From: Planctomycetia bacterium
Lineage (GTDB): Bacteria; Planctomycetota; Planctomycetia; Pirellulales; PALSA-1355
Length of the DNA: 64,000 bases
Assembly: GCA_041497975.1 (NCBI GenBank)
Contig: JBGQHN010000001.1
Span: 3,888 to 67,887, forward strand
Direction: 5' to 3'
Part shown: piece after piece, positions 32,561 to 59,366 of the stretch
Numbering within the stretch: position 1 is the first letter of the stretch
How the letters are laid out: every line of letters begins with the position of its first letter
Translations under genes and position numbers: made by a program
Notes under the pieces: model-generated
The model's database searches: none
Told to the model about the DNA's origin: nothing
Seen by the model: the letters and a program-made list of their open reading frames with translations, nothing else

Positions 32561-32567
32561 AAAGCGA

Positions 32568-34479: not shown

Positions 34480-34576
34480 GAGTGGGTCCGATTGCTAGGG
34501 AATCAGTGACATATCGAACGAAGTGCCTTGGCGGTCTTGCCAGGTGTCAACGGACGCCAAAAAAAGTGCCAGGGCT

Positions 34577-42157: not shown

Positions 42158-42204
42158 CAAAGTTACTCCGCGCGTGTCGCCAGCGAATGCGTCACCAAAT
42201 AATC

Positions 42205-43212: not shown

Positions 43213-43260
43213 ATTCGCGCTATAAGCCTTTCGTTGACACGGAAAAAACGTCTCGTTTCG

Positions 43261-44163
43261 TCACGCCAGCGGTCCCAAGACCAGCAATCCCATCATGGCA
43301 GGCAAATAGACTAGCGACGCCAACAGCAAGCGCCTGGCGGACTTGTCGCTTAGTTCGAAGAAAAACCAAATCGCGCACGCCAATTGGGCCGCACCCAAGA
43401 CGAGCGCCCACGCGAAATAAATCTCGCCGGCCGGCTGCAACAGGCAGGGAACCAGGCTGACAGGAATTAATACCAGTGACGACACGATGGCCTGGGCGCC
43501 CGCGCGAACCCCGCTGGGATCCACCGTGCTGAGCATTTGCAAACCCGCGCCGGCATACTGCCGGCGATAGATCCAGGCGATGGCCATGAAATGCGGGAAC
43601 TGCCAAAGAAACACGATCAAGAACAGCGACCAGGCCCGCAAATCAAACGGCGCTCCGGTGGCCGCCCAACCCATCAGCACGGGCAATGCGCCCGCCACGG
43701 CGCCGACGGCCGTGTTGAGCGGCGTGCGCGTTTTGAGCGGCGTATAGATCCACACGTAGAGCGTCCACGTAAGCAGGCCCAGCGCGGCGGTCTTGACCCC
43801 CACGGTCAGCGCCAGATAGGCCAGTCCGGCCAGGATCGACAGCGTGCTGAAGCAAACGACCTGACAGCCGGTCAAGCGTCCCGCGGGCAACGGCCGGTCG
43901 GCCGTGCGCGGCATTTGGGCGTCGGTGGCGCGTTCCAACCATTGATTGAGCGCGCTGGCGCTGGCCGCGACCATGGCGGTGCCGACGAGCGCATGGATCA
44001 GCACCCAACCGGCCGGCGGACCCCAGTTAGCCACAAACGCCGCCACCGCGACGGTAACCAGCACCATCGCCGAGATTTTCGGCTTCGTGAGCTCGCAATA
44101 ATCGGTAACTCGCACCGTCCACGCCGCGCGTTGATCTTCGATCGACAACGAAGTCATGCTCAT
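43261..44163 (-). CDS. ctaB: Protohaem IX farnesyltransferase (haem O synthase)
   Basis: UbiA-family motif ALNQWLERATDAQMPRTADRPLPAG, with nine hydrophobic helices. ATG 44163 forms an ATGA overlap with the ctaA stop. Confidence 0.9.
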   Translation of the reverse strand: MSMTSLSIEDQRAAWTVRVTDYCELTKPKISAMVLVTVAVAAFVANWGPPAGWVLIHALVGTAMVAASASALNQWLERATDAQMPRTADRPLPAGRLTGCQVVCFSTLSILAGLAYLALTVGVKTAALGLLTWTLYVWIYTPLKTRTPLNTAVGAVAGALPVLMGWAATGAPFDLRAWSLFLIVFLWQFPHFMAIAWIYRRQYAGAGLQMLSTVDPSGVRAGAQAIVSSLVLIPVSLVPCLLQPAGEIYFAWALVLGAAQLACAIWFFFELSDKSARRLLLASLVYLPAMMGLLVLGPLA

Positions 44164-45173
44164 CGGACGCTCCCCATGAGCCACGGCGTCTGGCCGGCAC
44201 GCAGTGCAGGCCGCCAGGCCAGTCGCACCGACCTCAACGCCAACAGTAAACTCGTCGCGAGAATCAGCGAGCCGATCGCCACGTGGGCCGTTGCAAACAG
44301 CGCCTGGGTAGCGCTATCGGCGCCGACAACGTGGCCCGCCGCGAAATTGAAGTCTGACATCCAAGCAGGCCAACCATATTTCGTGACCCAGGTCGCCGCG
44401 CCGAGACCGACTTGTGTCACGATCAAGCCTGCCAGGGCCAGCGCGGGCCGCCACAGTGACCGCTCAGCGCGCTGCGTGCGATAAACCTGCGCGGCCAACG
44501 CGATGGCATGCACGACCAGCGCGGCGGCGATCGCCAAATGGAAAAAAAGCGCGGTGCGGAAGTCAGACGCCCGGGCCCCGGCCGGCAGATGTCGCAACTG
44601 CGACCCCACGACAAGTTGGCCAAAGGCCAGCAAGGTTGTCAACGCAGCGAGTCGTTCGATGGACGCCAGTCCGGCCAAGGTCTGCGCGGCGGCCGATTGC
44701 CAGCGGCGGGAAGTAATCGCGGCCAACGCTACGGTGAAGGCAAAGAAAGCCGGAGCAACGCATCCGTGGATTTGCGCCAACTTCACTTCGTCCTCGATGA
44801 CGCGCATACCTCCCAGGGCGCCTTGAAGGATCACGGCTGCCAATGCGACCAGCGCCAGTCGGCGAACCAGCGGCCGGCTGCGCCACGTCGAGACGCAAAG
44901 AGCGATCGTTGTCATGCCCACGAGCGTGCCGAACAGCCGATGGCCATGCTCGATGAACAATTTCCAGGGACCGAAGATCCACGTTTGCCAGGGGTAGAGA
45001 AACAGGTTGTAGCCATACGTGTTCGGCCAATCCGGCACCGCCATACCAGCTCCGTAGGTGGTGACGAGCCCGCCGATCCAAATCATCGGGAACGTGGCGC
45101 AGACCAGCGCCACCGCCCAGCGATGTGGCCATGCACTCTCAAATTCAGGACTCGGTCGGTTCACGTTCGTCAA
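44160..45173 (-). CDS. ctaA: COX15/CtaA family haem A synthase
   Basis: PMIWIGGLVTTYGAGMAVPDWPNTYGYNLFLYP and conserved His-containing helices (IEHGHRLFG; QIHGCVAP; FFHLAIA). The start is uncertain: TTG 45173 or GTG 45164 are the first in-frame starts that do not overlap ctaD. The track ORF start at 45416 would overlap ctaD by more than 200 nt. Confidence 0.75.
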   Translation of the reverse strand: MTNVNRPSPEFESAWPHRWAVALVCATFPMIWIGGLVTTYGAGMAVPDWPNTYGYNLFLYPWQTWIFGPWKLFIEHGHRLFGTLVGMTTIALCVSTWRSRPLVRRLALVALAAVILQGALGGMRVIEDEVKLAQIHGCVAPAFFAFTVALAAITSRRWQSAAAQTLAGLASIERLAALTTLLAFGQLVVGSQLRHLPAGARASDFRTALFFHLAIAAALVVHAIALAAQVYRTQRAERSLWRPALALAGLIVTQVGLGAATWVTKYGWPAWMSDFNFAAGHVVGADSATQALFATAHVAIGSLILATSLLLALRSVRLAWRPALRAGQTPWLMGSVR

Positions 45174-45201
45174 TGCTCGCGCTGGTTCGTTGATCTGAAG
45201 C

Positions 45202-46998
45202 TTAGTGTGCCGGCGGTTGCTGTGGCGGGTTCTGCTGTTCGTCGGGGGGCGGTTGGGTTTGCGGATAGAAATCGGTATCGACTTCCGGCGAAGCATATTC
45301 ATAGGGGCCGCGGTAGACCACGGGTTGAAAGTCGAAATTGCCGTGGCCCGGTGGGCTGGGAGCCTGCCATTCGAGTCCGTTGGAGTGCCAGGGATTGCGG
45401 TCGGCACGCGGACCAAGAAACAAACTCAAAATGAAGTTAAGGGCGAAAATGATCTGCACGGCGACCATGCCGATAGCGCACCAGGTCATGAAGATATTGA
45501 GCGACTGCAGATGGTGGAATGTTTGGTAGTGATACGGATCGGCCAGGCGTCTTGGGAACCCGACCACGCCCAGGATGTGCATCGTGAAAAATGTGCCGTT
45601 CAAAAACAGGAACGTGAAGAAGAAATGCACCTTGCCCCACTTCTCGTTCATCATGCGACCGAACATCTTGGGATACCAAAAGTAGATCGCGCCAAAGACG
45701 CCCATCGCCGTCCCGGCAAACAGGACGTAATGAAAATGGGCCACGATAAAGTAGGTGTCGTGAATAAAGATATCGACCGGCGTGGCTGCCATGAAAATGC
45801 CCGACAACCCGCCAATGATGAACATCGACACAAACGACAGCGCGAATAACATAGCCGTGGTGAAGCGAATGTTGCCGCCCCATACGGTCCCCAGCCAGTT
45901 GAACGTCTTAATGGCGCTGGGCAACGCGATCATCATGGTCGAGACCATGAAGGTCATGCCCAAGGCCGGGTTCATGCCGGAGACGAACATGTGGTGGCCC
46001 CACACGATGAACCCTAGTCCGGCGATGCCGGCGATCGAGTAGATCATCGGCTTGTAGCCGAACAGCGGTTTTCGGGCAAAGCAGGCGATGATGTCGGAGA
46101 CCATGCCCATCGCCGGCAAAATCATGATGTAAACCGCCGGATGCGAGTAGAACCAAAACAGGTGTTGCCACAGTAACGGTTGGCCGCCGCCCGAGGCCAT
46201 CGCCGCATTGTTGGCGGTCCACCCGTCTGGAATAAAAAATCCGGTGCCCAACAGGCGGTCCATCAATTGCATGAATCCCGCGGCCGTCAACACCGGCAGC
46301 GCGAAGGCCTGCAGAATGGCGGTGATGAACATGGCCCAGATCGTCATGGGGAGCCGGAACATCGTCATTCCCGGAGCCCGCATCTGGATGATGGTGGTCA
46401 GATAATTGACCGAACCCATCATCGACGAGACGCCCACGAACGTCAGGCCGATCAGCCACAACGTCTGGCCGTTGAGATCCGTCAGCGCCAGAGGCGGATA
46501 GGAAGTCCAACCGGCCTTGGCAGCACCGCCCGAAACGAAGAAACTGGAGCCCATGGCGATGAACGCTGGCCACATGAACCAGTAACTCAGCATGTTCAAC
46601 GTGGGAAAGGCCATGTCTTCGGCGCCGATCATCAGCGGGATCAAAAAGTTGCCGAAAGCGCCGGCCAGGATGGGGATGATCACGAAAAAAATCATCACGG
46701 TGGCATGCATCGTAAACAGCACGGTGTAGAACTCGGGCGAGATTTGTCCGCCTTCGCCCGAGAACAGCATCTTGCCGATGACCGGCATTTCAGCCCAGGG
46801 CCAGGCCACTTGCCAGCGGATGCCCAGGGCCAAAAGCCCGCCCACCAAAAACCACAACAGCGTGGAGAAAAGGAACTGGATGCCGATGACCTTGTGATCT
46901 CTGGAGAACACATAGGTGGTCAAAAACCTGCCGGCATGCGCGTGGCTTGCGGCGCCGGCGACGTCGTGTGCGTGGGAACCGACCGTGGTCGTGCTCAT
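45202..46998 (-). CDS. ctaD: Cytochrome c oxidase subunit I (haem-copper oxidase, A-type)
   Basis: 598 aa. Carries LFWFYSHPAVYIMILP, WGHHMFVSG and HFHYVL haem/CuB ligand regions. ATGA overlap with the subunit II stop. Confidence 0.97.
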   Translation of the reverse strand: MSTTTVGSHAHDVAGAASHAHAGRFLTTYVFSRDHKVIGIQFLFSTLLWFLVGGLLALGIRWQVAWPWAEMPVIGKMLFSGEGGQISPEFYTVLFTMHATVMIFFVIIPILAGAFGNFLIPLMIGAEDMAFPTLNMLSYWFMWPAFIAMGSSFFVSGGAAKAGWTSYPPLALTDLNGQTLWLIGLTFVGVSSMMGSVNYLTTIIQMRAPGMTMFRLPMTIWAMFITAILQAFALPVLTAAGFMQLMDRLLGTGFFIPDGWTANNAAMASGGGQPLLWQHLFWFYSHPAVYIMILPAMGMVSDIIACFARKPLFGYKPMIYSIAGIAGLGFIVWGHHMFVSGMNPALGMTFMVSTMMIALPSAIKTFNWLGTVWGGNIRFTTAMLFALSFVSMFIIGGLSGIFMAATPVDIFIHDTYFIVAHFHYVLFAGTAMGVFGAIYFWYPKMFGRMMNEKWGKVHFFFTFLFLNGTFFTMHILGVVGFPRRLADPYHYQTFHHLQSLNIFMTWCAIGMVAVQIIFALNFILSLFLGPRADRNPWHSNGLEWQAPSPPGHGNFDFQPVVYRGPYEYASPEVDTDFYPQTQPPPDEQQNPPQQPPAH

Positions 46999-47819
46999 TC
47001 AGTATCCCCTTGTTCCACGGGCTGAGAGTCTTCCGTGGCAGTTTGCTCGAGATATTTTTGTTCCAGCCACTTGTTGAAGTCCTCCCGCGACTCGACCGTC
47101 AAGCGGCCTTTCATTTTGTAGTGGCCCCAGCCGCACAGTTCCGCGCAGACCAGGTCGTACACACCGGTGTCGGTCGCCCTGAACCAAACCGGTATCTTCA
47201 TGCCCGGCACGGCGTCCTGCTTGACGCGCATGTTGGGCAAAAAGAAGCTGTGCAAGACGTCGGCGCTCTTCAAGTCGATCAAGATCTCTTCATTCACCGG
47301 CAAGTGCAGATCGTTGACCACGAAGATGTCGTCGCTGTCTCCCAGCTTGCCTTGGGCCTTCAGGCCCGGATAGCGCAAACGCCATTCGAACTGCCGGGCG
47401 GTTACTTCGAGCGTCGGCGGCATGTCGTCGGCCGTTCCGAAGATGCCGTCGGGACCCGCTGCCGGATTGCGGATCTTCGAATCGGCCCAGGCGTTCATCT
47501 GATAAATGGCAATGAACAACAGCACGGCCGAGGGGATGATCGTCCACACGATTTCCAGGCTGTGGCTACCGTGCGTGAACTTTGCCGGCTTGACCTGGCC
47601 CTTGCCGTCGTAGCGCCACAGAAACCAGAACAATACCATTTCGGTAACGACGAATACGGCGCCGGTCAGCCACAAGATGAAATAAAACAGGTGATCGATC
47701 GTGTGACCGTGCTGCGAGATATCCGTTGGCAGCCAGTGCTTGTACCACGGCGCAACGACAAACGAGGCCACGCCCAGGACGGGTACCAGCAAAAACACCA
47801 CGCTCCAAAACTTCCCCAC
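46995..47819 (-). CDS. ctaC: Cytochrome c oxidase subunit II
   Basis: Two N-terminal TM helices and the CuA motif HSFFLP...CAELCGWGHYKM. GTG start. Confidence 0.92.
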   Translation of the reverse strand: MGKFWSVVFLLVPVLGVASFVVAPWYKHWLPTDISQHGHTIDHLFYFILWLTGAVFVVTEMVLFWFLWRYDGKGQVKPAKFTHGSHSLEIVWTIIPSAVLLFIAIYQMNAWADSKIRNPAAGPDGIFGTADDMPPTLEVTARQFEWRLRYPGLKAQGKLGDSDDIFVVNDLHLPVNEEILIDLKSADVLHSFFLPNMRVKQDAVPGMKIPVWFRATDTGVYDLVCAELCGWGHYKMKGRLTVESREDFNKWLEQKYLEQTATEDSQPVEQGDTE

Positions 47820-47955: not shown

Positions 47956-49209
47956 CTAAAAATTCTTGGCCTGGCTGACTCGCAACTGCTCCTGGCGCCG
48001 CGGCTCGCTGATCGGCTCGTACGGCAGTGACAGGACGTAATCCACCAGGTTCCAAATCTCTTCGTTTTTCAGCGTGCCTTGGGCACCCGGGGTGGCCGGG
48101 CCAACGCCGGGCATCGGCACGCCATTGATTCCCGCGTACATGCGACGATAGATGTCCAAAGGCCGGCGACCGCCGCGATAGATGCCTTGCCGCAAATTGC
48201 GCGGAATGGCGTTGCGCGGAGGCAGCGCGTCGGTCTGCAAGACCGAATGGGCGAAAGCGATTTGAGCTTCCGCCTGACTTCGATCGGCGCTCGACATCTC
48301 GCTGTTCTCGTTGATCGACTTTTGCTGGTCTTCGAGCCGCTTCGCCATCTCGACCAACGGCTTTGTCCAGTCGTCATAATCGTTCGTCTGGCCGTCACCC
48401 AGCGCGCTGGGTCCGTGGCATTTCACGCAATTGGCCGCCGTGCCGTAGAATAATTCGCGCCCCTTGGCGACCGACGCGGCCACGTCGGCGATCGATCGCT
48501 TTTCGGGTTGCACGATTTTTTCGGAGGCCGTGCGCCAATTCTCGGCAATCGGCTTGACGATTTCGTCGACCAGCACGGCCCGCGTGGTTTCAAGTCGTTC
48601 GCCTTCGCCCAAGGCCGTCAGCGCGTTGATCAGATCGATTTCCGTCTGGCCTCGCATGCTGAGATACTTCACGTACTCGACAAGCGCGTTGATTTGAGCG
48701 TCGGGCAACAGATCGAATGAGGGCATCGCGGTGCCGGGAACGCCGTGCCTGACCACCATCTCCAGGTCGTACTCGGTCGGCTTGGCGGCGCGTTCGGTCG
48801 ACTTGAACTTGAACTTGCCCTGCCGGTAATCGCGCGGATAGGGATTGAGCACCATCGCCGTCGGACCCTGACCGTCGCCGGTCGTGCCGTGACAATGGCC
48901 GCAATGGCGGCGGTAGAGCCCGGTCTCACGGCCGAACTGATCGCTGCGCACCGGGCCGGCCGCGACTTGCAGTTTCTTCAAGTCCAAGCTGGTGTCGCTC
49001 AGCACGAAGGGCTCGTCGGGCGTGCCGTACAAGGCCTCGAGAACGTTGGCCAGCTCTTGCCGCTGGTCGGGCGGAATCTGCGCGTCGGCAATCGCCACCA
49101 TGTTGAGATGGAATTGCGGCGAGTCGCTCTTGGAGCAGCCCGTGGCCAGTAGGGCCAACAGCGCAAGGCCGGGAAAAAACCGCGAATGGCCCAACAGAGT
49201 CTTTTTCAT
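47956..49209 (-). CDS. Dihaem c-type cytochrome lipoprotein
   Basis: ATG 49209 gives MKKTLLGHSRFFPGLALLALLATGCS (lipobox). Two CxxCH motifs are present (CGHCH, CVKCH). Confidence 0.8.
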   Translation of the reverse strand: MKKTLLGHSRFFPGLALLALLATGCSKSDSPQFHLNMVAIADAQIPPDQRQELANVLEALYGTPDEPFVLSDTSLDLKKLQVAAGPVRSDQFGRETGLYRRHCGHCHGTTGDGQGPTAMVLNPYPRDYRQGKFKFKSTERAAKPTEYDLEMVVRHGVPGTAMPSFDLLPDAQINALVEYVKYLSMRGQTEIDLINALTALGEGERLETTRAVLVDEIVKPIAENWRTASEKIVQPEKRSIADVAASVAKGRELFYGTAANCVKCHGPSALGDGQTNDYDDWTKPLVEMAKRLEDQQKSINENSEMSSADRSQAEAQIAFAHSVLQTDALPPRNAIPRNLRQGIYRGGRRPLDIYRRMYAGINGVPMPGVGPATPGAQGTLKNEEIWNLVDYVLSLPYEPISEPRRQEQLRVSQAKNF

Positions 49210-49327
49210 GAGTAACACTCGGCGTTCGAGCCGACGGCAAATGACACGTTTCGAAACTACGGTGATTGATCGAGCTTCCGAGCCCGCGGCTCGCTGCGGC
49301 CGGCTCGCCCACTGCGCGTCTGCAGGT

Positions 49328-50242
49328 CTATCTGAGCGCTCCAGCTGGCACTTCCAAAGCCAGGTCCATCGTTTGGTCGGGCTCAAGCTTTACTTTGAAA
49401 CGTCCCTTTGGGGACCATTTGAGTTCCTTTTTCGGTAGAACAACGGCGCCGTTGGGGCCGGCCCCGCGCTCGTGCCAGACTTGGATTTCGACCTCCTCGC
49501 CGGCCGGCAGATTAGCGAGCTCGAACGAACCATCGGCTTTCGTCACCGCAAAGTACTTGTCCTTCCGCGGCAGCAAGTAGGCCTTCATCCACGGATGAAT
49601 ACTGCACGAAACCGGCGCCGGCAGGGCTTCTTCCTTGGTGGGGATGTACAGCAGCGATTGACCGACGGGCAAGTTCTGGTTGAAGGCGGCGCCCTTGGCC
49701 GGATCGATTTTCGTGTTGTGGCCGACCGGGTCGCTGTTCTTCACGTTGACCCCACGATTGACCTGGCAGGCCGCGACGTGCGTCAGGAACATGCAGCCTT
49801 TTTGATCGAAGTCGAGCGGTTCCACCTTGCTATCCTTGTCGAGCGGCTGCGCCGATTCATGCACGCGCTTGACGCGCGGCGCGTAGACGACAATGTTGGA
49901 AATGCCTCCGTCGGAGCCGATCACCAGCGAGTTGTCGACGATCCCCTGCCCTTTCCCGCAGACCTCGGTGTCTTTGTCCACATTCAGCTTGCCAGGCGTG
50001 GGCGGCGTGCCGACGAATTTGAACGTGCCGCGCAGCGTGCCCCAGCCCGTACCGGTGGCTGCGACGTCGGCGCTCGTTTCACTACTCGCCTCCGCGCCGC
50101 TGGCCTTGAGCTTTTCCCGAATGTCGAGCGCCACTTGCTTGTCCGCGCGCGGTCCGGCCGTGGCCGGCCGGCCACAACCCGCCAGCGCTACTGCGGCGAC
50201 GGGGCCGACAATTGCCAAAAAAACCACAAACTTCGTGTGCAT
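49328..50242 (-). CDS. Cupredoxin-like (type-1 copper) lipoprotein with C-terminal carboxypeptidase-regulatory-like beta domain
   Basis: ATG 50242 gives a lipobox (VAAVALAGCG). Putative T1Cu ligands are SDPVGHNTKI (His) and CSIHPWM (Cys-x2-His-x2-Met, as in amicyanin). This is followed by ADGSFELANLPAGEEVEIQVWHE. It is a paralogue of 50283-51050. Confidence 0.7.
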   Translation of the reverse strand: MHTKFVVFLAIVGPVAAVALAGCGRPATAGPRADKQVALDIREKLKASGAEASSETSADVAATGTGWGTLRGTFKFVGTPPTPGKLNVDKDTEVCGKGQGIVDNSLVIGSDGGISNIVVYAPRVKRVHESAQPLDKDSKVEPLDFDQKGCMFLTHVAACQVNRGVNVKNSDPVGHNTKIDPAKGAAFNQNLPVGQSLLYIPTKEEALPAPVSCSIHPWMKAYLLPRKDKYFAVTKADGSFELANLPAGEEVEIQVWHERGAGPNGAVVLPKKELKWSPKGRFKVKLEPDQTMDLALEVPAGALR

Positions 50243-50282
50243 ACGTTGTATTCCTTCGGCCGACCCGTCAGGCGTCAAACGG

Positions 50283-51050
50283 CTACTTGAAAATCGAGCC
50301 GCTGACCTTGATGTCGCCAAGGTTGTTTTCCCCAGGTTTGATTTTGTACTTGAAATTGCCCTTGGAGTCGGACGTGCCGCCCTTGAAGCCGGCGTTTCTC
50401 AAGTAGCCTGCTTTTTCGTGCCACAGTCCGAATTCGAGTTCTTTACCAGCCGGCAAATCCTTGATGGTGAAGGTACCGGTCTTGTCCGAGACGGCAGCGT
50501 AAGGATCGGTGCGAACGATCAACCACGCGCCCATCCAGGTGTGGATATTGCAGCCCACCTTGACCGGCCGGACTTCCGGCTTGGCGAATTTATGTTTGAG
50601 CGGATCGGCCCCGGCCGCCAGGATCGGATTGATTCCATCGTTGCTGATCGAAGCGATGTTGGTGTTGTGGCCCGTGGGGTCTGAGTTCTTCAACAACAGG
50701 GTTTGCGACGTGCGCACGACGAGTACATGCGGCTCGAAGTGGCAATTCTTGTTGTCCAGTTCCACGTTGTCCTTGGCGCTCGATTCATACGCGGGATTGA
50801 CCGGCACGTTCTTGGATTTGAGTATGATGACCGCATTGGCCAGCCCGCCTTTGGCATCGACCAACAGGTCTTCATCCGTAAGCTTGACCTTGCACATTGG
50901 ATCCTTCGAGGTATCGATCGGCGCGGGCGTTGGCGCCTTGCCGTCGTAGACGAACCGGCCAGTCAGGGTGCCCCAATCGGCGGCCAGGGCGCCAGTGGCC
51001 AGCAACACCGTCAGGGCGAACGACGCGCCCGCTATCATAGATTTGCACAT
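50283..51050 (-). CDS. Cupredoxin-like (type-1 copper) exported protein with C-terminal carboxypeptidase-regulatory-like beta domain
   Basis: Signal peptide. FEPHVLVVRTSQTLLLKNSDPTGHNTNI (a cupredoxin strand with the HN ligand) and CNIHTWM (C-x2-H-x2-M), then KTGTFTIKDLPAGKELEFGLWHE. Confidence 0.7.
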   Translation of the reverse strand: MCKSMIAGASFALTVLLATGALAADWGTLTGRFVYDGKAPTPAPIDTSKDPMCKVKLTDEDLLVDAKGGLANAVIILKSKNVPVNPAYESSAKDNVELDNKNCHFEPHVLVVRTSQTLLLKNSDPTGHNTNIASISNDGINPILAAGADPLKHKFAKPEVRPVKVGCNIHTWMGAWLIVRTDPYAAVSDKTGTFTIKDLPAGKELEFGLWHEKAGYLRNAGFKGGTSDSKGNFKYKIKPGENNLGDIKVSGSIFK

Positions 51051-51051: not shown

Positions 51052-51282
51052 TTATTTTTGGTCTCCTTGCTCGGCCGAAGGCGTTCCGCCGCCGGAGGTC
51101 GAGTCGGTAGAAGCGGCCGCGGGGTCCTTGGGGCCGGATTCGGTGCCTAAATCCACGGTGGGAGCAGTGGCGTTTTGTGAGGCTCCTGAGGGAGGCGGCG
51201 CGGGCTTGCCGCAGCCGGCCGTCGGTAGCACGGCCGCCAACAGCAACAAGGCATTATAAAACGCGCGTCGTGCATTGACCAT
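51052..51282 (-). CDS. Small lipoprotein, low-complexity (76 aa)
   Basis: ATG 51282 is preceded by GGAGAGG. Lipobox LLAAVLPTAGCG followed by a Pro/Ser/Gly-rich tail. It is tightly packed between the octahaem stop and the cupredoxin start. Confidence 0.45.
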   Translation of the reverse strand: MVNARRAFYNALLLLAAVLPTAGCGKPAPPPSGASQNATAPTVDLGTESGPKDPAAASTDSTSGGGTPSAEQGDQK

Positions 51283-51297: not shown

Positions 51298-54200
51298 TTA
51301 CTGGGCCGCGTCTTGGCGCTGCGCGCCGGCAGACGCATTTTCAGCCGCCTCAGGTACTTTGATCAGTGGCGTGATCGACGTCTTACTTTCCATGAACCGA
51401 TCGTAGTTTAACATCAGGTCGACCAGCGCATTGAGCTGGTCGTCGCTGCTGCCCTTGAAAAGCGACTGGCTGATCGGCTTGTCGGGCGGCACGTTGGCTT
51501 GCATCCTCGTGTACGGCAAAAGCCGCTTGGGGTTGGCCATCCACGGCAGCAGGAACTCGGGCCGCAGGCGATTGTAGACCTGGTCCAAGCGCGGCGCATT
51601 GTTCCGCTCGCTGCCTTTGGGAGTGTAGTCGCCGACCAGGTGGCACTTGATGCATTCCGTTTGGGTGACAATCTTCAGCGCGTCGCCCAAGCGGTCGGGA
51701 TGGCTCGCGTCTTGTGCCGCCAGATACGATTCTCGCGTCCGTGAATCGAAGTTGTAGGGATAGTCTGCGCGGTCCACCGCGGCGAAGTAGTTGGCCAATT
51801 TGCTGGCCTCATCCGACGACATGTTGAATTTCGGCATGCGCAATACCGCCGCCGGGCGAATCATGTGCGGGTCCAGCAAGAAATCGTGCAGCCAGTTGCT
51901 TTGAACCTTGCGCCCCTCGCCCGCCAGCGGCGGCGGCAACCAGCCCCAGGCTTCGTCCGGGTTCTGGTTCGGGTTGATTTTCAATTCCTCGGCCACGACG
52001 ACCGGGTGCGCCAGTCGGGCCAGAAGGCCGCCCAGCGGCGGATAGCGCTTCGCGATGCTCGACTCGGGAATCAGAATCTTCTGCAAACCGGCTTGCCAGG
52101 CTTCGCCGTTGAGGAGCACGTTTTCCCAGGGCATGAAAAAGTAATAGGCCTTGGTCCGCGGATCGTCCGGCCCCAGCGGAGTGCCCTCTTCGTCGTGGGG
52201 TATCGGATTGCCTTCGGCGTCGGCGACCGGCATGCCGATCAGCGTCGCGTGCCGCAGCCCGCGCGTGTCGGTCTCCAGCGAGGCTTTTACCTGCTGCGGA
52301 CTGAATTGCGGCTCCAGGAATTCGTAATCTTTCACGATCTCGGGCTTTTCGAAATCGGCCGCCTGATAAGCCAATTCCCAGCGATCGAGCTCGAGCGTGT
52401 GACAGCCTGTGCAATTGAACTTCTCGATGACTTGCATCCCGTCGACGATTGCCGCGCGGCGCGGATCGGCGTGATACACGTATTGCAGCGCCGGCGGCTC
52501 GGCGACCAGGCCCAACACAAACGTGATAATCGCTTCGCGCTGGGCATCGTCCAGGGCCGTGAACTGCGGCATGCGCAGTCGTTCGTTGTATCCCTTGTTT
52601 TGAGTCTTCTTATAGTCGTAGCTGCGCGGCTCGCGAAGCTTTTGCCAGATGAAACCCTCGCGCTGGTGACCGAAAAGCTTCTCCATGAAGTAGCCCACGT
52701 CGGACGGCAGGTTGAGGAAGTCCACGTGGGTATGCCCATAGGCCCCTTCGTCAGCTTCTTCGATCCTCTGGTCGGTGACGTCTTTCGCTGGTGGGCCATC
52801 ACTGTGCACCAACGGCCCGGGAGCGCCGTGCGCATGCTTGATGTACTCGACGATTTGCTCGAAGGCCAGCTTGTCGGGAGTCTTGCGGGCCCAATCGGCC
52901 AGCCCCGTGCCGATCGGTTTGACGTCCTCGAATCCCGGAATGTCATGACAGCCCGAGCAACCGTACTTGTTAATCGTGCGGCGGCCGACGTAGCTCAGCT
53001 TCTTTTCGGTCGACATTGCGCCGACGAGCTCGACTTCGTCTCCCTTCAGCTCGCTGCGACGGCTCTCGGGAATGCCGTTTTTGAGATAGATTTCGGCTTG
53101 CCGGGTCGAGTTCAAGGCCATCTTGAGATGATCCAGGGCCAAGGCCTGCAGGGCTTGTTCTTGATCGTCGCTCAGTTGGCGCGACGGCACGTCCGTGGGC
53201 TTCCAATCCTGCCGCGAATCCAGCAAGAACGCCGTGATGTCAGCCGCAGGGTCCGACCGTTTGCCGTCGCTGTCCGTGACCGGATCGAGCAGCATGTTTG
53301 GCATCAGCGTCCGCGCGTGGTACTGGCTCGGATTGCGCAGCCACGTGTAGAGCCATTTCTTCCCTTCGGCTTTCAGCGACAGCTTTGCGCCGATGCGGGA
53401 CAGGTTGGGGCCTTGCGTCATATTGCCGGCGGGGAAATCGCTGTGCTGATGACAAGCCAGGCAGCGCACCTCAAACGCCTTCTTGCCTCGCTCGGCCGAG
53501 GCCTCGACGGTTACGGATTGTGGCGGGGTGGCGTATTTGAACGGCTGGCTCTTGGCCAGCAGATACTCGACGATGCCGCGGATTTCGATCGGTTCGAAAC
53601 GCAGAGACGCTTTCAAGCCCTGGCCGTCCAGATGACCCGTCTGCCCGAAGGATTGCGGCATCTTCGTGCTGGGACGAAAATCACTCGGCTTGCGGACCCA
53701 GGAGTACAGAAACTCGAAACCGACCTTGCTGGCGACGTGGCGCAGGCTGGGTCCCACTTTGCGCAACTGGCCCGGCGTTTCAACGTCGTCCAAGAGCGCG
53801 ACAAGCTTCTTGGTTACATTGGCGTCTTCTCCGGGCAACTTATCGCCATTTTTTAGCGATTCGGCCAGCGAATGGCGCGCCGAGCTGTTGGAAGGTTCGC
53901 GCGCCAAGTCGCTCGCCCAAGTCTGTTGTCGTTCGTTCAGGCCGCTCCCGGCCAAGAGAGCCTGGGCCGCGGCCGAGTAATTCGGCTCGGTGCGCAGATC
54001 GGGTCCAATGCGTCGATTCGGGCCGTCATAGCCATTGATTTCATGGCAACCAAAGCAGCCGAATTGCTGAATCAAGCGGAAGCCTTCGATCAGCTTGGGT
54101 GCCGGCGGATCGGGAAATCGCGGGCTGGGCTCCAGCTCCGTCACGTCGTGATGGCACTTCAAGCACAAGCTTTCGGCGAAGCGCTTGGGATACATCGGGA

Positions 54201-55713
54201 AGATCCAATGATGGTTGTCAAACCAACCATGCTCGTGCTTCCACTTGTCGGCCTGGAACGGATCGTTTGGCGCGTGCGACGCCCACTTGAACGCGGTGGC
54301 GCTGCCCTGCCCGTCGTGGCAAATCGTGCACCCGATGTCGAGCAGCTTGTGAGGGCTCAACGATCCGACGAACAGGTCGAGCCGCGGATGACTGGCATAG
54401 GGATTGGGCAGACCACGGCGAACGGTGATCTCGAGCGGTTGACCCCATTCGACGCTTTCGAGCAGATAATTGTAGACGGCGCGCTTATCCAGGACCTTGG
54501 CATCGTTAACGCTCTCGATAACGTCGCCGACTTCGAGCCGCGCCTTGGCCGCCGGCGCCTGGGGACGCACGACGCTCACGACCGCGTCGGCCGGATCGAG
54601 AAGTCCCTCGTTGGCCAATTGCAACCCGTAGGTTTCCTTGAGCAGCCGAACGTACAGTCGTTCCGTCGAGTCATCGTCGGAACTTCTCTCCGCCAGGTCC
54701 GGCGGAGCCGTGGCCGGCGTGTCCATGGTCAACACCAGGCTGTGCTGCCGCTCGTAGCCGGGCGCCGTGGCCGAACCGGGCGCCGTTTTGTCAATCGCCA
54801 GATGGCAATTCGTGCAGCGGTCGAAGCGGGCCACGTCACGGAAGTTGTAGTTGATCGTCAGCTTGGGCAGCCAGATCTGATCGATCTTCTTGGGCGAGAA
54901 GGCGTCGATGATCGGCAGCGCGATGATCTCCTTCATCGCGTGATCTTGCCGCTCGTAGAGTTGCTTCTCGAGCTGGCCCACCGTGCCGGTCAATTCATCG
55001 AGTTGTTTCTTTTTTTCGTCCTCATCGGCCGTGATCCGCGCTACGATCGATTCCAACCGCTTGCGATGCTCCGTGGCGTCTTGCAGTTTGAGCGTCGCCT
55101 GCTGGACTTCTTTGATGATGTCGGTGACGCGCTCTTGCATGGCGTCCAGGGTGGACTTGGGCAACTCCCTGCCGACTCCCAATTCGTATTCACTGCGAGC
55201 GACGTCCAAATCGGCGTTGCGAAACTTTTTCGTAGATGCCAGCCCGTCCTCGCGAAATCTGGCTTGCCGGGAGAACGACAACAGGTTCCGGAGAAACTCG
55301 TCGCGCAAGGCCGGCAAGGCCGGTCTGTCGGCTTCATCGGGGTCTTTTAGTTTCTTGTACGTCGCGTCGATGGTCTCGAAGTTGGCGGTTTTTTTGTTCT
55401 TTTCGGCGTCTTGCGCGACGGTGTCGACAAACTGATCGACCAGCGCGCCGTCGGGAACTTCGCTCCGCGCGGCTTGCCAGGCCCTGGTCGCCTCGTCCAG
55501 TTGCTGGCGATACTGGTCGCTCTCTTCCTGGCTGATGCGGGCCTGAGTCGTCCAGGCTTCAATCTTCTGAAACTTGCGCTGATAGTCCTTCCACTCTCGG
55601 CGGTGGTCGGCGGCGAGCATCCAGATCGTGGTAATCAGCATCGCCAACCCACTGATCCCGAAGATCACGTGCATCAGCCTTGAATCGCGCCAGGTTTGCT
55701 CTGTGGCAGGCAT
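51298..55713 (-). CDS. Giant membrane-anchored octahaem c-type cytochrome (1471 aa) with coiled-coil and PDZ-like segments
   Basis: Eight CxxCH motifs (CTNCH, CTICH, CLKCH, CFGCH, CLACH, CSGCH, CTGCH, CIKCH). N-terminal TM helix (VIFGISGLAMLITTIWML), ~250 aa of coiled-coil-like sequence, and a PDZ-like block AAKARLEVGDVIESVNDAKVLDKRAVYNYLLESVEWGQPLEITVRRG. It lies directly downstream of the Rieske/cytochrome b genes. Confidence 0.85.
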   Translation of the reverse strand: MPATEQTWRDSRLMHVIFGISGLAMLITTIWMLAADHRREWKDYQRKFQKIEAWTTQARISQEESDQYRQQLDEATRAWQAARSEVPDGALVDQFVDTVAQDAEKNKKTANFETIDATYKKLKDPDEADRPALPALRDEFLRNLLSFSRQARFREDGLASTKKFRNADLDVARSEYELGVGRELPKSTLDAMQERVTDIIKEVQQATLKLQDATEHRKRLESIVARITADEDEKKKQLDELTGTVGQLEKQLYERQDHAMKEIIALPIIDAFSPKKIDQIWLPKLTINYNFRDVARFDRCTNCHLAIDKTAPGSATAPGYERQHSLVLTMDTPATAPPDLAERSSDDDSTERLYVRLLKETYGLQLANEGLLDPADAVVSVVRPQAPAAKARLEVGDVIESVNDAKVLDKRAVYNYLLESVEWGQPLEITVRRGLPNPYASHPRLDLFVGSLSPHKLLDIGCTICHDGQGSATAFKWASHAPNDPFQADKWKHEHGWFDNHHWIFPMYPKRFAESLCLKCHHDVTELEPSPRFPDPPAPKLIEGFRLIQQFGCFGCHEINGYDGPNRRIGPDLRTEPNYSAAAQALLAGSGLNERQQTWASDLAREPSNSSARHSLAESLKNGDKLPGEDANVTKKLVALLDDVETPGQLRKVGPSLRHVASKVGFEFLYSWVRKPSDFRPSTKMPQSFGQTGHLDGQGLKASLRFEPIEIRGIVEYLLAKSQPFKYATPPQSVTVEASAERGKKAFEVRCLACHQHSDFPAGNMTQGPNLSRIGAKLSLKAEGKKWLYTWLRNPSQYHARTLMPNMLLDPVTDSDGKRSDPAADITAFLLDSRQDWKPTDVPSRQLSDDQEQALQALALDHLKMALNSTRQAEIYLKNGIPESRRSELKGDEVELVGAMSTEKKLSYVGRRTINKYGCSGCHDIPGFEDVKPIGTGLADWARKTPDKLAFEQIVEYIKHAHGAPGPLVHSDGPPAKDVTDQRIEEADEGAYGHTHVDFLNLPSDVGYFMEKLFGHQREGFIWQKLREPRSYDYKKTQNKGYNERLRMPQFTALDDAQREAIITFVLGLVAEPPALQYVYHADPRRAAIVDGMQVIEKFNCTGCHTLELDRWELAYQAADFEKPEIVKDYEFLEPQFSPQQVKASLETDTRGLRHATLIGMPVADAEGNPIPHDEEGTPLGPDDPRTKAYYFFMPWENVLLNGEAWQAGLQKILIPESSIAKRYPPLGGLLARLAHPVVVAEELKINPNQNPDEAWGWLPPPLAGEGRKVQSNWLHDFLLDPHMIRPAAVLRMPKFNMSSDEASKLANYFAAVDRADYPYNFDSRTRESYLAAQDASHPDRLGDALKIVTQTECIKCHLVGDYTPKGSERNNAPRLDQVYNRLRPEFLLPWMANPKRLLPYTRMQANVPPDKPISQSLFKGSSDDQLNALVDLMLNYDRFMESKTSITPLIKVPEAAENASAGAQRQDAAQ

Positions 55714-55755: not shown

Positions 55756-57057
55756 TCAAAAATTCAAAAAATACTCGGGGATGCTCACGATATATTTCAT
55801 GTTCAGCGTCCAACGCAGCACCATCTTCAGCGGCAGCGCCGCCATGAACAACAACAGGTTGGACATCAGCATGAACCGCAAAAATCCCATCTTGACGAAA
55901 TAGCTCCTGAAAATCGTGGTCGCCATCAAGGGCGGCAACAGCGCGAAATACGCGAACAACAGCGCGATGCCAAACCACTCGCGATACAAGATCATGCCGA
56001 TCTCGACGTACCACGGGCTGCCTGAGGCGGCTTTGGGCAGGGCCTGGCCCATCCACGCGATCCAGAAGTATTGCGACAGGTCGACGTTGTTGAGCGCCAG
56101 CACCTTGTGCGGATCCCAATACTCGAACGGCCCGAAGATATTCCAGTTCGGTCCGCGGAAAAACGTGCCCAGGATGATCAGCGTGATCCACATTTCCAGG
56201 AATCCGAACTGGAAAATCAAGTAGCTGAACTTCCGCTCTTCGATCGTGAAATAGCCGTTGCCCCTCTTGTTGAAATCCAAGAACGGAATGGCCATCAATC
56301 CGAAGATGATCAAGCTGGGCAGCAGCACGCCGGCCATCCAGGGATCGTAATAGACGAGCATTTCCTGCAGGCCCAGGAAGTACCAGGGGGCCTTCGAGGG
56401 ATTGGGCGTTTTCACGCTGCTGGCCGGTTCCTCCAAGGGGGCCTGCAGGCCGATTCCCCACACCAGTAGAAACGCGGTCAGGGCGATCATGCAAATCAGT
56501 TCCGTGTAGACCAGGTCCGGCCACACCAGAACTTTTTCGTTGTCCAGCTTTTCGGTGGGTGGCAAACCCTGCTTGGCCCGATTGTCGTTTTCCACGGCCT
56601 TGGCCGTGGCCAACCAGGTAAAGAATCCCAACAGGAACACCAGGCCGACGATGGGGACGTTGTCGGGCTTGGTGACGATCGCGGCAAAGTTTGGGTCAAC
56701 GATCGACATTCCCATGACGACCAGCGCCAGATTCAGCCCCACCCAGGCGACCATTGGCTGCACGAAGAAACGGCGCCCCAGGAAAAACACGGCCAACAGC
56801 GTGGTGGTGCCCACGCTGTAAACCACGGGGCCGGTGGCGCTGTTGACGGCTTCGCGCCACGATTGGGGCAATCCTGGCGGGCTGCCGCCAAACGCCGCCG
56901 ACGCGACCGCCACGAGAATGAACGAGACCGCAACCCACACAATCGCTTGAGCGACGTTGTGCTTCTTGTGCCAGAAGTAAAAGGCCAGCACGGCGTTCAT
57001 CGCCGCCAGGCACAAGTAATATCCGCCCAAAAATCCGGAAACGTCGGAACCGTGCAT
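55756..57057 (-). CDS. Cytochrome b C-terminal domain / subunit IV-like protein (enlarged, 433 aa)
   Basis: Core VWPDLVYTE...PNPSKAPWYFLGLQEMLVYY corresponds to the PEWY region of cytochrome b C-terminal/PetD. Extra hydrophobic helices are present both N- and C-terminal to this core. Confidence 0.85.
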   Translation of the reverse strand: MHGSDVSGFLGGYYLCLAAMNAVLAFYFWHKKHNVAQAIVWVAVSFILVAVASAAFGGSPPGLPQSWREAVNSATGPVVYSVGTTTLLAVFFLGRRFFVQPMVAWVGLNLALVVMGMSIVDPNFAAIVTKPDNVPIVGLVFLLGFFTWLATAKAVENDNRAKQGLPPTEKLDNEKVLVWPDLVYTELICMIALTAFLLVWGIGLQAPLEEPASSVKTPNPSKAPWYFLGLQEMLVYYDPWMAGVLLPSLIIFGLMAIPFLDFNKRGNGYFTIEERKFSYLIFQFGFLEMWITLIILGTFFRGPNWNIFGPFEYWDPHKVLALNNVDLSQYFWIAWMGQALPKAASGSPWYVEIGMILYREWFGIALLFAYFALLPPLMATTIFRSYFVKMGFLRFMLMSNLLLFMAALPLKMVLRWTLNMKYIVSIPEYFLNF

Positions 57058-57168: not shown

Positions 57169-57942
57169 CTACAGGGGACCACTGATGCCGCCGTCCTTGC
57201 GGACGCGCCAAAAATGGATGGCCAGCAGCAACGACACGGCCAACGGAATCGCGATGCAATGCAGAATATAGAATCGATTGAGCGTTTCTTCGCCCACGAA
57301 GCGCGCGCCAAGCAGCGCAAAGCGCGCATCCGAGGCGTTGGTGATCATGTCAATTCCCTGGATATTGAGCAACTGTTGCCCGGGACCTTCGTGGCCCAAA
57401 ATCGGCGTGGCCCGCGCCATGTTCGAACCGACCGTGATGGCCCAGATCGCCAACTGGTCCCAAGGCAGCAGGTAGCCGGTGAACGACAACATCAGCGTCA
57501 TCAGCAGCAAAATCACGCCGATGACCCAATTGAATTCACGCGGCGGCTTGTAGCTGCCGGTCAAAAACACGCGGTACATATGCAACCACACCGTGATCAC
57601 CATCGCGTGCGCGCCCCAGCGATGCAATTCGCGCAAGATGCCCAGCGAAGTGACGTCTCGCAAGCTCAATATGTCGTTGTAGGCCCATTCGAGCGTGGGG
57701 CGGTAATAGAACATCAACAGCACGCCGGTCACCGTCTCGACCAGAAACAGAAAGAACGTGACGCCGCCCATGCACCACGTGTAGCTCAGCGCAATGCCCT
57801 GCTTCTTGATCGATACCGGGTGCAGATGCAAAAAGAAGTTGGTCAGCATCACCACAATGCGGTTGCGGCGATCCTGGGGCATGGGGTGCCGGAAGATGCT
57901 CTTCCACACCTGCGACTCGCGAATCATTTCGCCAATGGACAT
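57169..57942 (-). CDS. Cytochrome b6-like (cytochrome b N-terminal domain)
   Basis: [44 protein letters not shown]...WLHMYRVF and [14 protein letters not shown] are the four-helix haem b domain motifs. Confidence 0.9.
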
Positions 57943-58130: not shown

Positions 58131-59204
58131 TCAGACCGCGACGTACGAAGCAGGGTCGCTCCACTGGCCGATTTCTTCCTGAAAAAGCTTGCTCTTGTCG
58201 ACTTCCAACTGGCCGTCGTCGGCGATGCGAATGGCATAACGCTCGAGCGGCCGCGGCGCAGGCCCCTCGAAATTGATGCCATCCTTGTAAAAACCGCTGC
58301 CGTGGCAGGGACATTTGAACTTCTGTTCGCCCTCCAGCCAATTGGGCGTGCAGCCCAAATGCGTGCAGACCGACCGCAACGCGTAAATCTCGGGCTTTCC
58401 GTTGTACTCGTAGTTGACCACCCATACGCCGTACTGCGGGATGAACTTGGTTTCCACTTGCCCAGGAGAAAAGTTGCTCGGGAACCCGACCTTGAACTTG
58501 CTCGGGGGTTCCGTCAGTACGTTGGGATACATGAAGCGGGCTGTCCCCAACGTCCACAGTCCCAGCGTCGTGGCCAACGACGTGAAGCCAATCCCCAAGA
58601 AGGAACCCAACATCATGTCGCCGATAAAACTGCGGCGGGTTTGTTCGACGACGGGCGCGGGCTTTGGCATGGCGTAGTCGGGCTTGACCGGCATTGGCGG
58701 AACGACAGCTTTCGCCTTCTCCGGCTTGGGCGCCGGTTTCACGTCGGGCGCCTTGAGTGCTGCTTCAGCCTTCGACATGGGACCCGGCTTGACCGCGCTG
58801 CGAGCTTCAGCCAGGATGCTGCCCGTATCTTTCGGAGCGGCGGGGGGCGCTTCTGCCGGCGCGGCTTCGGCGATTGCCGGTTTGGGTGATTCTTTTTTCA
58901 CCGGCGCGGCTGCTGCAGGCTTCGCGGCCGCTGGTTTGGATGGGACCGAGGCGCCTTCCTTTTTTTCAGCGCGAGCGGCTGCCAACATTTCAGCAACGCT
59001 CGGTCGCGCGCCACCCGAGAGCTTTGGCGCGGCGGGTTTCGCCACGGCGGCTGGCGCCTCGGCGGGCGAAAGCGCCGATGCACCATCGATGGCCGGTGTT
59101 TCGGCTGGTGGTGCCGCCGCGCCTGCCTCCGGGGACTTACTCGCGTCGGCCTTGCGTGCCGCGGCCAAGATCTCGGCCACGGACATCTTCTTCTTGTCCG
59201 CCAT
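58131..59204 (-). CDS. Rieske iron-sulfur subunit of a cytochrome bc-type complex, with long N-terminal extension
   Basis: CTHLGCTPNW...CPCHGSGF Rieske boxes. TAT-like TRRSFIGDMMLGSFLGIGF lies ~190 aa from ATG 59204 and is preceded by an Ala/Pro/Lys-rich region. TTG 59225 is an alternative start. Confidence 0.9.
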   Translation of the reverse strand: MADKKKMSVAEILAAARKADASKSPEAGAAAPPAETPAIDGASALSPAEAPAAVAKPAAPKLSGGARPSVAEMLAAARAEKKEGASVPSKPAAAKPAAAAPVKKESPKPAIAEAAPAEAPPAAPKDTGSILAEARSAVKPGPMSKAEAALKAPDVKPAPKPEKAKAVVPPMPVKPDYAMPKPAPVVEQTRRSFIGDMMLGSFLGIGFTSLATTLGLWTLGTARFMYPNVLTEPPSKFKVGFPSNFSPGQVETKFIPQYGVWVVNYEYNGKPEIYALRSVCTHLGCTPNWLEGEQKFKCPCHGSGFYKDGINFEGPAPRPLERYAIRIADDGQLEVDKSKLFQEEIGQWSDPASYVAV

Positions 59205-59366
59205 GCCCAGTACCCTCAGGCCCAAGCGATCATTTGCATCGCCACCAACCGCAAAGTGGACGCAAACGATCCAGCCAGCCTTAAATCCAAGCTACAGACA
59301 ACCCCCGAACCGCCTTCCAGCACTGTCCGCGGCAGGGATTGTGACATTTTTAACGATCTATTTCAA

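Follow-up and report, generated by a model that had tools for sequence, protein, structure and literature searches.

The third redox subunit of a Rieske/cytochrome b complex is usually a single-haem cytochrome c1 or f. On a 64,000-nucleotide (nt) stretch of a Planctomycetia bacterium genome (contig JBGQHN010000001.1; the whole stretch is called the window here), a Rieske protein and a b6-type cytochrome b are encoded near an aa3-type oxidase, and the position of c1 or f is taken by a gene for a 1471-residue octahaem cytochrome c of roughly 160 kDa. The locus raises the question of whether this protein is the redox partner of the Rieske protein. In our view the octahaem protein probably serves as c subunit in a b6f-like Rieske/cytochrome b complex, replacing c1 or f in function while being a homologue of neither. 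The best reading of the complex as a whole is a menaquinol-oxidising b6-type complex wired towards the co-encoded oxidase.

An octahaem cytochrome c gene among Rieske/cytochrome b and oxidase genes

The octahaem gene starts with an ATG and forms a single uninterrupted 1471-residue open reading frame (ORF), with CxxCH motifs at residues 300, 462, 517, 553, 751, 919, 1101, and 1354. The eight motifs use all 16 cysteines of the protein, compared with 0.005 motifs expected by chance from its composition. An initial annotation of the window had claimed this ORF and its eight motifs, with no strand given, had placed it directly after the Rieske, cytochrome b, and subunit IV genes, had noted that no c1- or f-type cytochrome is present, and had taken two downstream unknowns for cupredoxins. 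The ORF and motif count are confirmed, the strand being minus, and the other points are borne out by the shared strand, the Pfam assignments, a CxxCH survey of the 64 kb, and profile searches. In minus-strand order, the genes are the following.

58131..59225, minus strand: Rieske iron-sulfur protein with a twin-arginine translocation (Tat) motif and a long Ala/Pro-rich N-terminal extension (Pfam Rieske, PetC-like NCBIfam matches)
57169..57942, minus strand: cytochrome b6-type four-helix cytochrome b, 257 residues, with a CMGG motif (CxGG, haem ci) (Pfam Cytochrome_B, 134.5 bits)
55756..57057, minus strand: enlarged subunit IV-like protein, 433 residues, with about 10 hydrophobic segments and the Qo motif APWY (Cytochrom_B_C, 23.2 bits; ExtQ; hydropathy)
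51298..55713, minus strand (read from 55713 to 51298): octahaem cytochrome c, 1471 residues (ORF, translation, eight CxxCH)
51052..51282, minus strand: small conserved lipoprotein ORF, 76 residues (translation; called as a gene in public contigs)
50283..51050, minus strand: amicyanin-like type-1 copper protein A with a C-terminal immunoglobulin (Ig)-like domain (profile against the PDB)
49328..50320, minus strand: amicyanin-like type-1 copper lipoprotein B, a paralogue of A (BLASTP, 34% identity to A, E = 8e-40)
47956..49386, minus strand: dihaem class-I cytochrome c lipoprotein adjoining CoxB (Pfam Cytochrom_C in two stretches; lipobox LATGC)
41702..47819, minus strand: aa3-type oxidase and assembly genes CoxB, CoxA, CtaA, CtaB, CoxC, and CoxD (Pfam COX2, COX1, COX15-CtaA, UbiA, COX3, and COX4_pro)

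Genes for an ABC transporter, SCO1, and a DUF420 protein follow CoxD. The Rieske protein contains the boxes CTHLGC and CPCHGS, and cytochrome b scores 185 bits against the cytochrome b6 model. The subunit IV-like gene, separated from the octahaem gene by a gap of 42 nt, encodes a protein with a strongly conserved C-terminus (PEYFLNF); subunit IV of b6f complexes has three transmembrane (TM) helices. No Pfam c1 or f match was found among the window proteins searched. The 64 kb contain two genuine cytochrome c genes, the octahaem gene and the dihaem c gene, neither of them c1 or f, and no further candidate c subunit was found between the subunit IV and oxidase genes. The two copper proteins have no match in Pfam or NCBIfam. 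A profile of 16 cupredoxin orthologues finds amicyanin (PDB ID 2gb2_A, E = 0.0013) over the whole cupredoxin domain, the copper ligands H128, C167, H170, and M173 are invariant, and the Ig-like domain (CarboxypepD_reg-like) is fused to the C-terminus of both proteins.

The family of the octahaem protein was found in at least 590 genomes in a scan of one genome per species. The best 80 of these species-level genomes form the basis of our statements on linkage, with gene order judged where the flank of the locus suffices; all 80 are labelled Planctomycetota, mostly Pirellulales. Wherever the flank suffices among the 80 loci, the genes without exception follow the order Rieske, cytochrome b, subunit IV, octahaem protein, cupredoxin(s), dihaem c, CoxB, and CoxA on one strand, and no NAD(P) oxidoreductase gene was found in the window cluster or in loci L001 to L082. 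The identity of cytochrome b is 81 to 98% in all but one locus holding it (58% in L075), and that of the octahaem protein is 38 to 66% across the same 80 loci. The linkage is thus conserved across loci and across the protein architectures described below, and this comparative genomics supports the main inference of the initial annotation, which had seen in the octahaem protein the probable c subunit of the complex.

The linkage also bears on a rival explanation, in which the octahaem protein is a free-standing, anchored electron hub or store, co-transcribed with the complex without being a stable subunit, and the dihaem c or a cupredoxin is the true Rieske acceptor. Such a hub would account for a number of haems that far exceeds the needs of a Rieske-to-oxidase link, the dihaem c and the copper proteins are likewise conserved in the cluster, and the octahaem gene is followed by a 247-nt gap with a promoter-like site. 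However, the octahaem gene always lies right after the subunit IV gene (42 nt here), and conservation of the encoded TM helix spans the architectures and extends to a remote type of operon. The cupredoxins and the dihaem c, being secreted proteins or lipoproteins, are encoded on the oxidase side of the cluster, and the promoter count in the region is at chance level. We therefore regard the hub as rather unlikely and keep the c subunit as the preferred reading.

Most of the 247-nt gap is occupied by the 76-residue ORF, which has an LPTAGC lipoprotein signal, a PPPGA motif, and an acidic low-complexity tail. The 10 closest loci have it in the same place (tblastn, E = 8e-22 to 8e-5), and its product may belong to the complex as a small subunit. 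The promoter-like site (TGGTCA-17 nt-TATAAT, 10 of 12 matches; 51253..51281, minus strand) follows closely on the stop codon of the octahaem gene and overlaps the beginning of the small ORF. Since promoter and terminator counts in the scanned region are at chance level, the scan gives no evidence on operon boundaries.

A haem core and five class-I cytochrome c domains

The region from haem 2 to the C-terminus divides into a core with fixed spacing and a series of cytochrome c domains.

54034..54390, minus strand: core of haems 2, 3, and 4 with fixed spacing, residues 442 to 560 (weak c3/c7-like matches, spacing, invariant His/Met)
53509..54096, minus strand: class-I cytochrome c domain 4 (haem 4, Met685), with an insert of about 80 residues (Pfam Cytochrom_C, hhalign)
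53164..53508, minus strand: class-I cytochrome c domain 5 (haem 5, Met804) (Cytochrom_C, SoxX model)
52489..53016, minus strand: class-I cytochrome c domain 6 (haem 6, Met1048) (Pfam, hhalign, invariant Met)
51709..52461, minus strand: class-I cytochrome c domain 7 (haem 7, Met1293), with a beta-rich insert (FixO-like match, hhalign, DSSP)
52042..52398, minus strand: beta-rich insert in domain 7, residues about 1106 to 1224 (DSSP strands, model residues 667 to 785)
51364..51702, minus strand: class-I cytochrome c domain 8 (haem 8, Met1404) (Pfam, hhalign, invariant Met)

In the core, the median spacings of haems 2 to 3 and 3 to 4 are 55 and 36 residues and vary far less than the other intervals. 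The core of the window protein shows matches below the cut-offs to Cytochrom_c3_2 (Pfam ID PF14537; 22.6 bits, cut-off 25) and Cytochrome_C7 (Pfam ID PF14522; 21.8 bits, cut-off 24.8), and a weak match to Paired_CXXCH, while two relatives exceed the Cytochrome_C7 cut-off (P0358, 34.6 bits; P0245, 32.4 bits). The residues H442, H455, H480, and M507, near haems 1 to 3, are invariant across three planctomycete architectures, which makes them candidate distal ligands of these haems.

The initial annotation had proposed a profile search for repeated cytochrome c folds. By such comparisons, haems 4 to 8 belong to five homologous class-I domains with predicted His/Met coordination. The Cytochrom_C domain (Pfam ID PF00034) scores 78 bits over the whole octahaem protein, the best stretch being residues 740 to 831. 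When the segments are searched separately, it exceeds its 21.3-bit cut-off in domains 5 and 6 only, with 18.6, 14.8, and 19.4 bits for domains 4, 7, and 8. The hhalign comparison of domain 4 with domains 5, 6, 7, and 8 gives probabilities of 98.8, 98.0, 97.1, and 97.9%, and Pfam additionally indicates a FixO-like match at residues 1261 to 1329. Each domain contains an invariant Met (M685, M804, M1048, M1293, and M1404) in a P..T.MP motif after haems 4 to 8, with M685-P686 invariant as a pair. A PDB sequence search with the octahaem protein yielded only marginal PDZ and cytochrome c matches.

Because every haem has a conserved sixth-ligand candidate, we read the octahaem protein as an electron wire and not as an enzyme. 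Octahaem enzymes do exist, and according to its published description (PMC12954380) a Kuenenia complex bears an HAO-like octahaem protein, Kuste4574, so that a catalytic protein tethered in a similar manner had to be considered, for example a nitrite or hydroxylamine oxidoreductase, a peroxidase, or an enzyme of sulfur oxidation. The haem-5 domain barely meets the cut-off of the SoxX model (61.2 against 61 bits), but this match reflects a generic class-I domain, and Pfam and NCBIfam give no match to HAO, ONR, MccA, peroxidase, or another catalytic multihaem family. The invariant distal-ligand candidates, the five Met together with H442, H455, H480, and M507, provide for every haem, and the genes that accompany the cluster are those of an aa3 oxidase and its assembly. 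We reject the catalytic explanation as highly improbable.

The family in planctomycetes and beyond

The first homologue search returned more than 1500 homologues. Among the best 120 of them, 118 are 1435 to 1573 residues long and 119 contain exactly eight CxxCH motifs. An exhaustive search with residues 260 to 740 resulted in 531 clusters (50% identity) at E <= 1e-30, with lengths of up to 1977 residues, and nearly all full-length cluster members combine eight CxxCH motifs with an N-terminal TM helix. An identical 1471-residue protein occurs in an NCBI assembly (P0001) and in two independent SRA assemblies. An assembly or annotation artefact fusing separate cytochrome genes, for which nothing but the unusual length speaks, is refuted by these identical proteins and by the hundreds of full-length homologues sharing the eight-haem layout, as the initial annotation had proposed to check in relatives.

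Eight Pirellulales-type loci are titled ‘Candidatus Kuenenia (stuttgartiensis)’ (L012, L013, L018 to L021, L027, and L041). Their GC content of 62 to 65% and their aa3 oxidase indicate that this label is almost certainly wrong.

To search metagenomes, we used an AT-biased back-translation of the invariant motif CT.CH.G.G..T.F, which led to 84 loci, mostly marine and with 27 to 41% GC. The marine loci carry genes for a Rieske protein, cytochrome b (64 to 70% identity), subunit IV, a compact octahaem protein, a cupredoxin-like protein, and CoxA. The compact form (L085 to L164) has eight haems in about 950 to 1030 residues and matches the window protein with E = 4e-41. It keeps the N-terminal helical region and lacks the PDZ domain, with haems 1 and 2 being 42 and haems 2 and 3 being 55 residues apart. 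In a representative locus (L100, octahaem gene at 3338-6316, plus strand), the Rieske, cytochrome b, subunit IV, and octahaem genes are consecutive on one strand, and a cupredoxin-like gene and a CusF-SCO1 fusion gene lie on the opposite strand. A search seeded with this protein found 1109 homologues, and all of the 120 listed have eight CxxCH motifs. NCBI organism names are available for seven compact homologues, six being Candidatus Marinimicrobia (SAR406) and one Rhodobacteraceae. The Marinimicrobia-type Rieske protein (182 residues) has no N-terminal extension, whereas that of the window has a cytoplasmic extension of about 190 residues, rich in Ala, Pro, and Lys, ahead of its twin-arginine motif; the true start of the latter is likely M8 at 59204.

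A more distant operon type (L137:3948-9082, minus strand, 44% GC) encodes an NAD(P)/FeS oxidoreductase (646 residues), a Rieske protein (174 residues), a fused long cytochrome b (463 residues), and a pentahaem protein (424 residues). The pentahaem protein aligns with the window protein over haems 2 to 4 (E = 5e-13) and over the haem-1 motif, and it has no helical insert. Another locus (L102, 13399 nt, 41% GC) contains a 747-residue ORF with 13 CxxCH motifs near a distant Rieske/cytochrome b pair (cytochrome b 54% identical), which is another multihaem partner of a b6-type complex.

The N-terminal anchor, the helical insert, and the haem-1 module

For the N-terminal half, we used an AlphaFold2 model of the octahaem protein made with 59 homologues. 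The initial annotation had described an N-terminal TM helix followed by a charged helical region, and hydropathy and the model agree with both.

55609..55677, minus strand: signal-anchor TM helix, residues 13 to 35, followed by the juxtamembrane sequence EWKDYQRKF (hydropathy, AlphaFold2, conservation)
54949..55596, minus strand: charged, length-variable long-helix region, residues 40 to 255, between the TM helix and haem 1 (AlphaFold2, alignment)
54802..54915, minus strand: haem-1 module, residues 267 to 304, with P267, F272, W281-L-P, N290-F, and R296-F-D-R-C300xxCH (conservation)

The protein has one hydrophobic helix at about residues 13 to 35, which the model places at residues 11 to 37. 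Residues 1 to 50 show an identity of 0.65 to 0.70 among homologues, H15, F18, D36, and W41 are invariant across the three planctomycete architectures, and the TM and juxtamembrane part aligns with the pentahaem protein of L137 (E = 2e-4). As this part is conserved even in the L137 operon type, the sequence comparison suggests that the TM helix packs into the complex and is more than a mere anchor. His15 (codon 55669..55671, minus strand) lies at the cytoplasmic edge of the helix. We rejected it as a special ligand or family feature, as it is replaced in Marinimicrobia-type sequences and in L137.

The region following the anchor consists of about 215 residues of confidently predicted long helices (residues 40 to 63, 66 to 84, 89 to 105, 113 to 123, 127 to 181, and 186 to 255), with a predicted local distance difference test (pLDDT) score above 90 over residues 70 to 250, and tight turns of 3 to 4 residues link the long helices. 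Charged residues make up 38% of residues 40 to 255, compared with 27% of the whole protein. No residue between 42 and 266 is invariant in the three planctomycete architectures, and the distance from the N-terminus to haem 1 ranges from 84 to 435 residues among family members. From the juxtamembrane motif to haem 1 it amounts to 256 residues here, 208 to 243 residues in the compact marine form, and 38 residues in L137. These varying distances, with 38 residues in L137, indicate that the helical region has been inserted between two conserved elements which formerly lay side by side. In contrast to this region, the haem-1 module contains the most conserved stretch of the octahaem protein, residues 276 to 300 around haem 1, with a mean identity of 0.86. 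A Pfam search with the separate segment matched no known family.

The PDZ domain varies by lineage

54394..54660, minus strand: PDZ domain, residues about 352 to 440, inserted between haems 1 and 2 (PDZ_2, AlphaFold2, Foldseek)

The PDZ-like segment of the initial annotation holds in both comparisons that had been set as its checks. The Pfam domain PDZ_2 (Pfam ID PF13180) matches residues 371 to 434 with 30.9 bits against a gathering cut-off of 27, and a Foldseek search with the model, whose pLDDT is about 90 over residues 320 to 440, finds the solved PDZ domains of Scribble, DLG1, and NHERF1 with a probability of 1.00 and template modelling scores to the target of 0.63 to 0.78. The peptide-binding loop is kept, with Y362 nearly invariant and G363 invariant.

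The domain varies by lineage, giving three planctomycete architectures. In the first, that of the window protein, a PDZ domain, at times two, lies between haems 1 and 2; some Pirellulales-type members have two tandem PDZ domains after haem 1. In the second, found in a Planctomycetaceae-labelled clade, it lies between haems 6 and 7 (P0245, PDZ_2 at residues 814 to 865; locus L082:9001-13158), and it is only weakly similar to the PDZ domain of the window protein (E about 1e-3 to 1e-4). The different place and the weak similarity suggest an independent acquisition or a relocation. The third architecture has no PDZ domain (P0358, 1245 residues). All three sit in the same operon, and the gene order is unchanged in L081, which has no PDZ domain, and in L082, where it lies between haems 6 and 7.

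As possible ligands we considered the C-termini of the Rieske protein (GQWxDPxS[FY][VI]x[VA]) and of subunit IV (PE[FY][FS]LNF), which are conserved and probably periplasmic. Both are equally conserved in L081 and L082, so that they were rejected as candidates, and without covariation with the presence of the PDZ domain we claim neither as its ligand. The PDZ domain and the beta-rich insert of domain 7 are probably lineage-specific accessories for docking or stabilisation, outside the conserved electron path.

The proposed electron path

The conserved N-terminal TM helix would anchor the octahaem protein in the complex. The variable length of the helical region, its turns of 3 to 4 residues, and the adjacency of TM helix and haem 1 in L137 suggest that the helices lead away from the membrane surface and back to it. 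This excursion would begin and end near the membrane, leaving the haem-1 module at its surface and open to reduction by the mobile Rieske head. If the breaks at residues 64 to 65 and 106 to 112 are kinks and not turns, the helix lengths sum to roughly +6.7, -5.2, +8.2, and -10.5 nm, and a net displacement near zero would keep haem 1 within reach of the Rieske head. Electrons would pass through the core of haems 2 to 4 into the five tandem His/Met domains (haems 4 to 8). From there the amicyanin-like copper proteins, the dihaem c lipoprotein, or both would take them on to CuA of the aa3-type oxidase, with which a supercomplex may form. For the helices and the PDZ domain, scaffolding or docking is a putative role.

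A bolder version is an obligate supercomplex of novel architecture. The octahaem protein would then be a fixed wire from the b6-type complex to the aa3 oxidase, with the partners clamped by the helical arms and, in some of the lineages, by the PDZ domain, and the eight haems together with bound copper proteins would form a continuous path of about 10 nm that needs no diffusible carrier. Two groups of major ecological weight, Planctomycetia and marine Marinimicrobia (SAR406), would use this machine as their main aerobic path from quinol to oxygen, a proposal that we put forward tentatively and consider doubtful in this full form.

Several points weigh against the octahaem protein as the c subunit. 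The association of the family with the complex is predicted from comparative genomics, and its physical membership, the sequence of electron transfers, and the course of the helices are inferences. The AlphaFold2 confidence is low around every haem-binding stretch, and haem order and helical topology are deduced from secondary structure and spacing only. A Foldseek search of the haem region against the PDB gives no significant match, the best being SoxX with a probability of 0.92 (E = 0.48), and yeast c1 appears with a probability of 0.30 (E = 1.3), indicating no fold relationship to c1 or f. Conceivably, the Rieske protein has the dihaem c lipoprotein (47956..49386) as its direct partner instead. 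Finally, the Kuenenia subunits discussed below are likened to the octahaem protein by their published description and not by sequence.

Other features of the window

Upstream of the respiratory genes lies a cluster resembling an aerotolerance operon, and the window contains a further beta-propeller gene.

24235..34494, minus strand: aerotolerance-operon-like cluster with a MoxR AAA ATPase, DUF58, BatA/VWA, VWA, and DUF4175-like proteins
34580..37090: PQQ-like beta-propeller protein

Comparison with known systems

The octahaem gene follows those of cytochrome b and subunit IV as the c1 and f genes do, and the protein shares with c1 and f a single TM anchor and a periplasmic c haem that would take the Rieske electron. 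It differs from them in having eight haems instead of one, in being five to six times larger, and in its N-terminal anchor, the anchors of c1 and f being C-terminal. Homology to c1 (Pfam ID PF02167) or f (Pfam ID PF01333) is not indicated by any Pfam, NCBIfam, or PDB sequence match.

That Rieske proteins reduce multihaem cytochromes is an established idea, attributed to Dibrova et al. (2013) in PMC5317091, and a split cytochrome b with the haem ci cysteine has been noted in Blastopirellula marina and Pirellula staleyi (PMC3509893). The closest described systems are the b6f-like complexes of the anammox bacterium Kuenenia, in which, according to PMC12954380, a TM-anchored hexa- or octahaem cytochrome c replaces cytochrome f, subunit IV is enlarged, and long helices of Kustd1485 wrap round the complex. 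Like the anammox subunits Kustd1485 and Kuste4573 in that description, the octahaem protein has genes for a Rieske protein, for a cytochrome b of the b6-like kind, and for an enlarged subunit IV next to its own, belongs to the phylum Planctomycetota, has a TM anchor, and would stand in for cytochrome f, the anammox proteins having six or eight c haems. The L137 operon with its pentahaem relative includes the same kind of NAD(P)/FeS oxidoreductase as the anammox complexes in that account. The window operon, in contrast to the anammox operons described there, has no NAD(P) oxidoreductase or HAO-like protein and instead has copper proteins and an aa3 oxidase. Its subunit IV has about 10 hydrophobic segments compared with the 5 TM helices given for the anammox protein, and the parts of the description consulted mention no PDZ domain for the anammox subunits, whereas the window protein has one.

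A second comparison is the dihaem QcrC of the actinobacterial III2IV2 supercomplex, which joins a menaquinol-oxidising complex to an aa3 oxidase (PMC7908018). Both QcrC and the octahaem protein are class-I multi-domain c subunits of a menaquinol-oxidising Rieske/cytochrome b complex near an aa3 oxidase, the latter on the reading preferred here. The QcrC model (NF050122) scores 18.4 bits on the octahaem protein against a cut-off of 200, so that it is not a member of that family. QcrC has two haems and lacks the core of haems 2 to 4, the helical insert, and the PDZ domain, and its supercomplex is known, while for the window system a supercomplex is a possibility. The link from QcrC to the aa3 oxidase is not known to need a soluble carrier.

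The nearest NCBIfam models for the partner proteins come from the Geobacter ext clusters (PMC5877670), with the b6-like ExtP for cytochrome b (259.8 bits) and the subunit IV-like ExtQ for subunit IV (55.9 bits), all below their cut-offs; the model of the cytochrome c lipoprotein ExtS reaches 44 bits on the haem-5 domain, also below its cut-off. The likeness lies in a b6-type pair working with several c-type cytochromes. The ext system, however, includes a porin, lacks a link to an oxidase, and acts in the reduction of metalloids or in extracellular reduction (PMC5877670).

In alternative complex III, a quinol:cytochrome c oxidoreductase, the pentahaem ActA is likewise a multihaem wire anchored in the membrane, and this complex can feed an aa3 oxidase in a supercomplex. 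The quinol module of alternative complex III contains no Rieske protein or cytochrome b and is hence unrelated. Homology to ActA turned up in none of the searches made, and no search was aimed at it.

We found no description in the literature of the octahaem subunit, its PDZ domain, its link to the aa3 oxidase, or its presence in Marinimicrobia; Dibrova et al. (2013) may mention it. The window protein is a member of a widespread and uncharacterised family of probable octahaem c subunits, while the replacement of c1 or f by a multihaem protein is itself already known from the anammox complexes. What distinguishes this family is that an eight-haem subunit of about 1000 to 1900 residues replaces the usual c1 or f throughout, beside an aa3 oxidase, whereas the anammox cases serve a different metabolism. 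If the assignment is true, it would define the quinol-to-oxygen route of planctomycetes and of a highly abundant dark-ocean lineage, and cultivable planctomycetes would offer a clear target for cryo-electron microscopy and complexome analysis. The family would furthermore supply a graded set of natural examples with which to ask what makes a long haem wire necessary for a bc complex, from five haems in L137 to eight in the compact Marinimicrobia form and eight with PDZ domains and inserts in planctomycetes.

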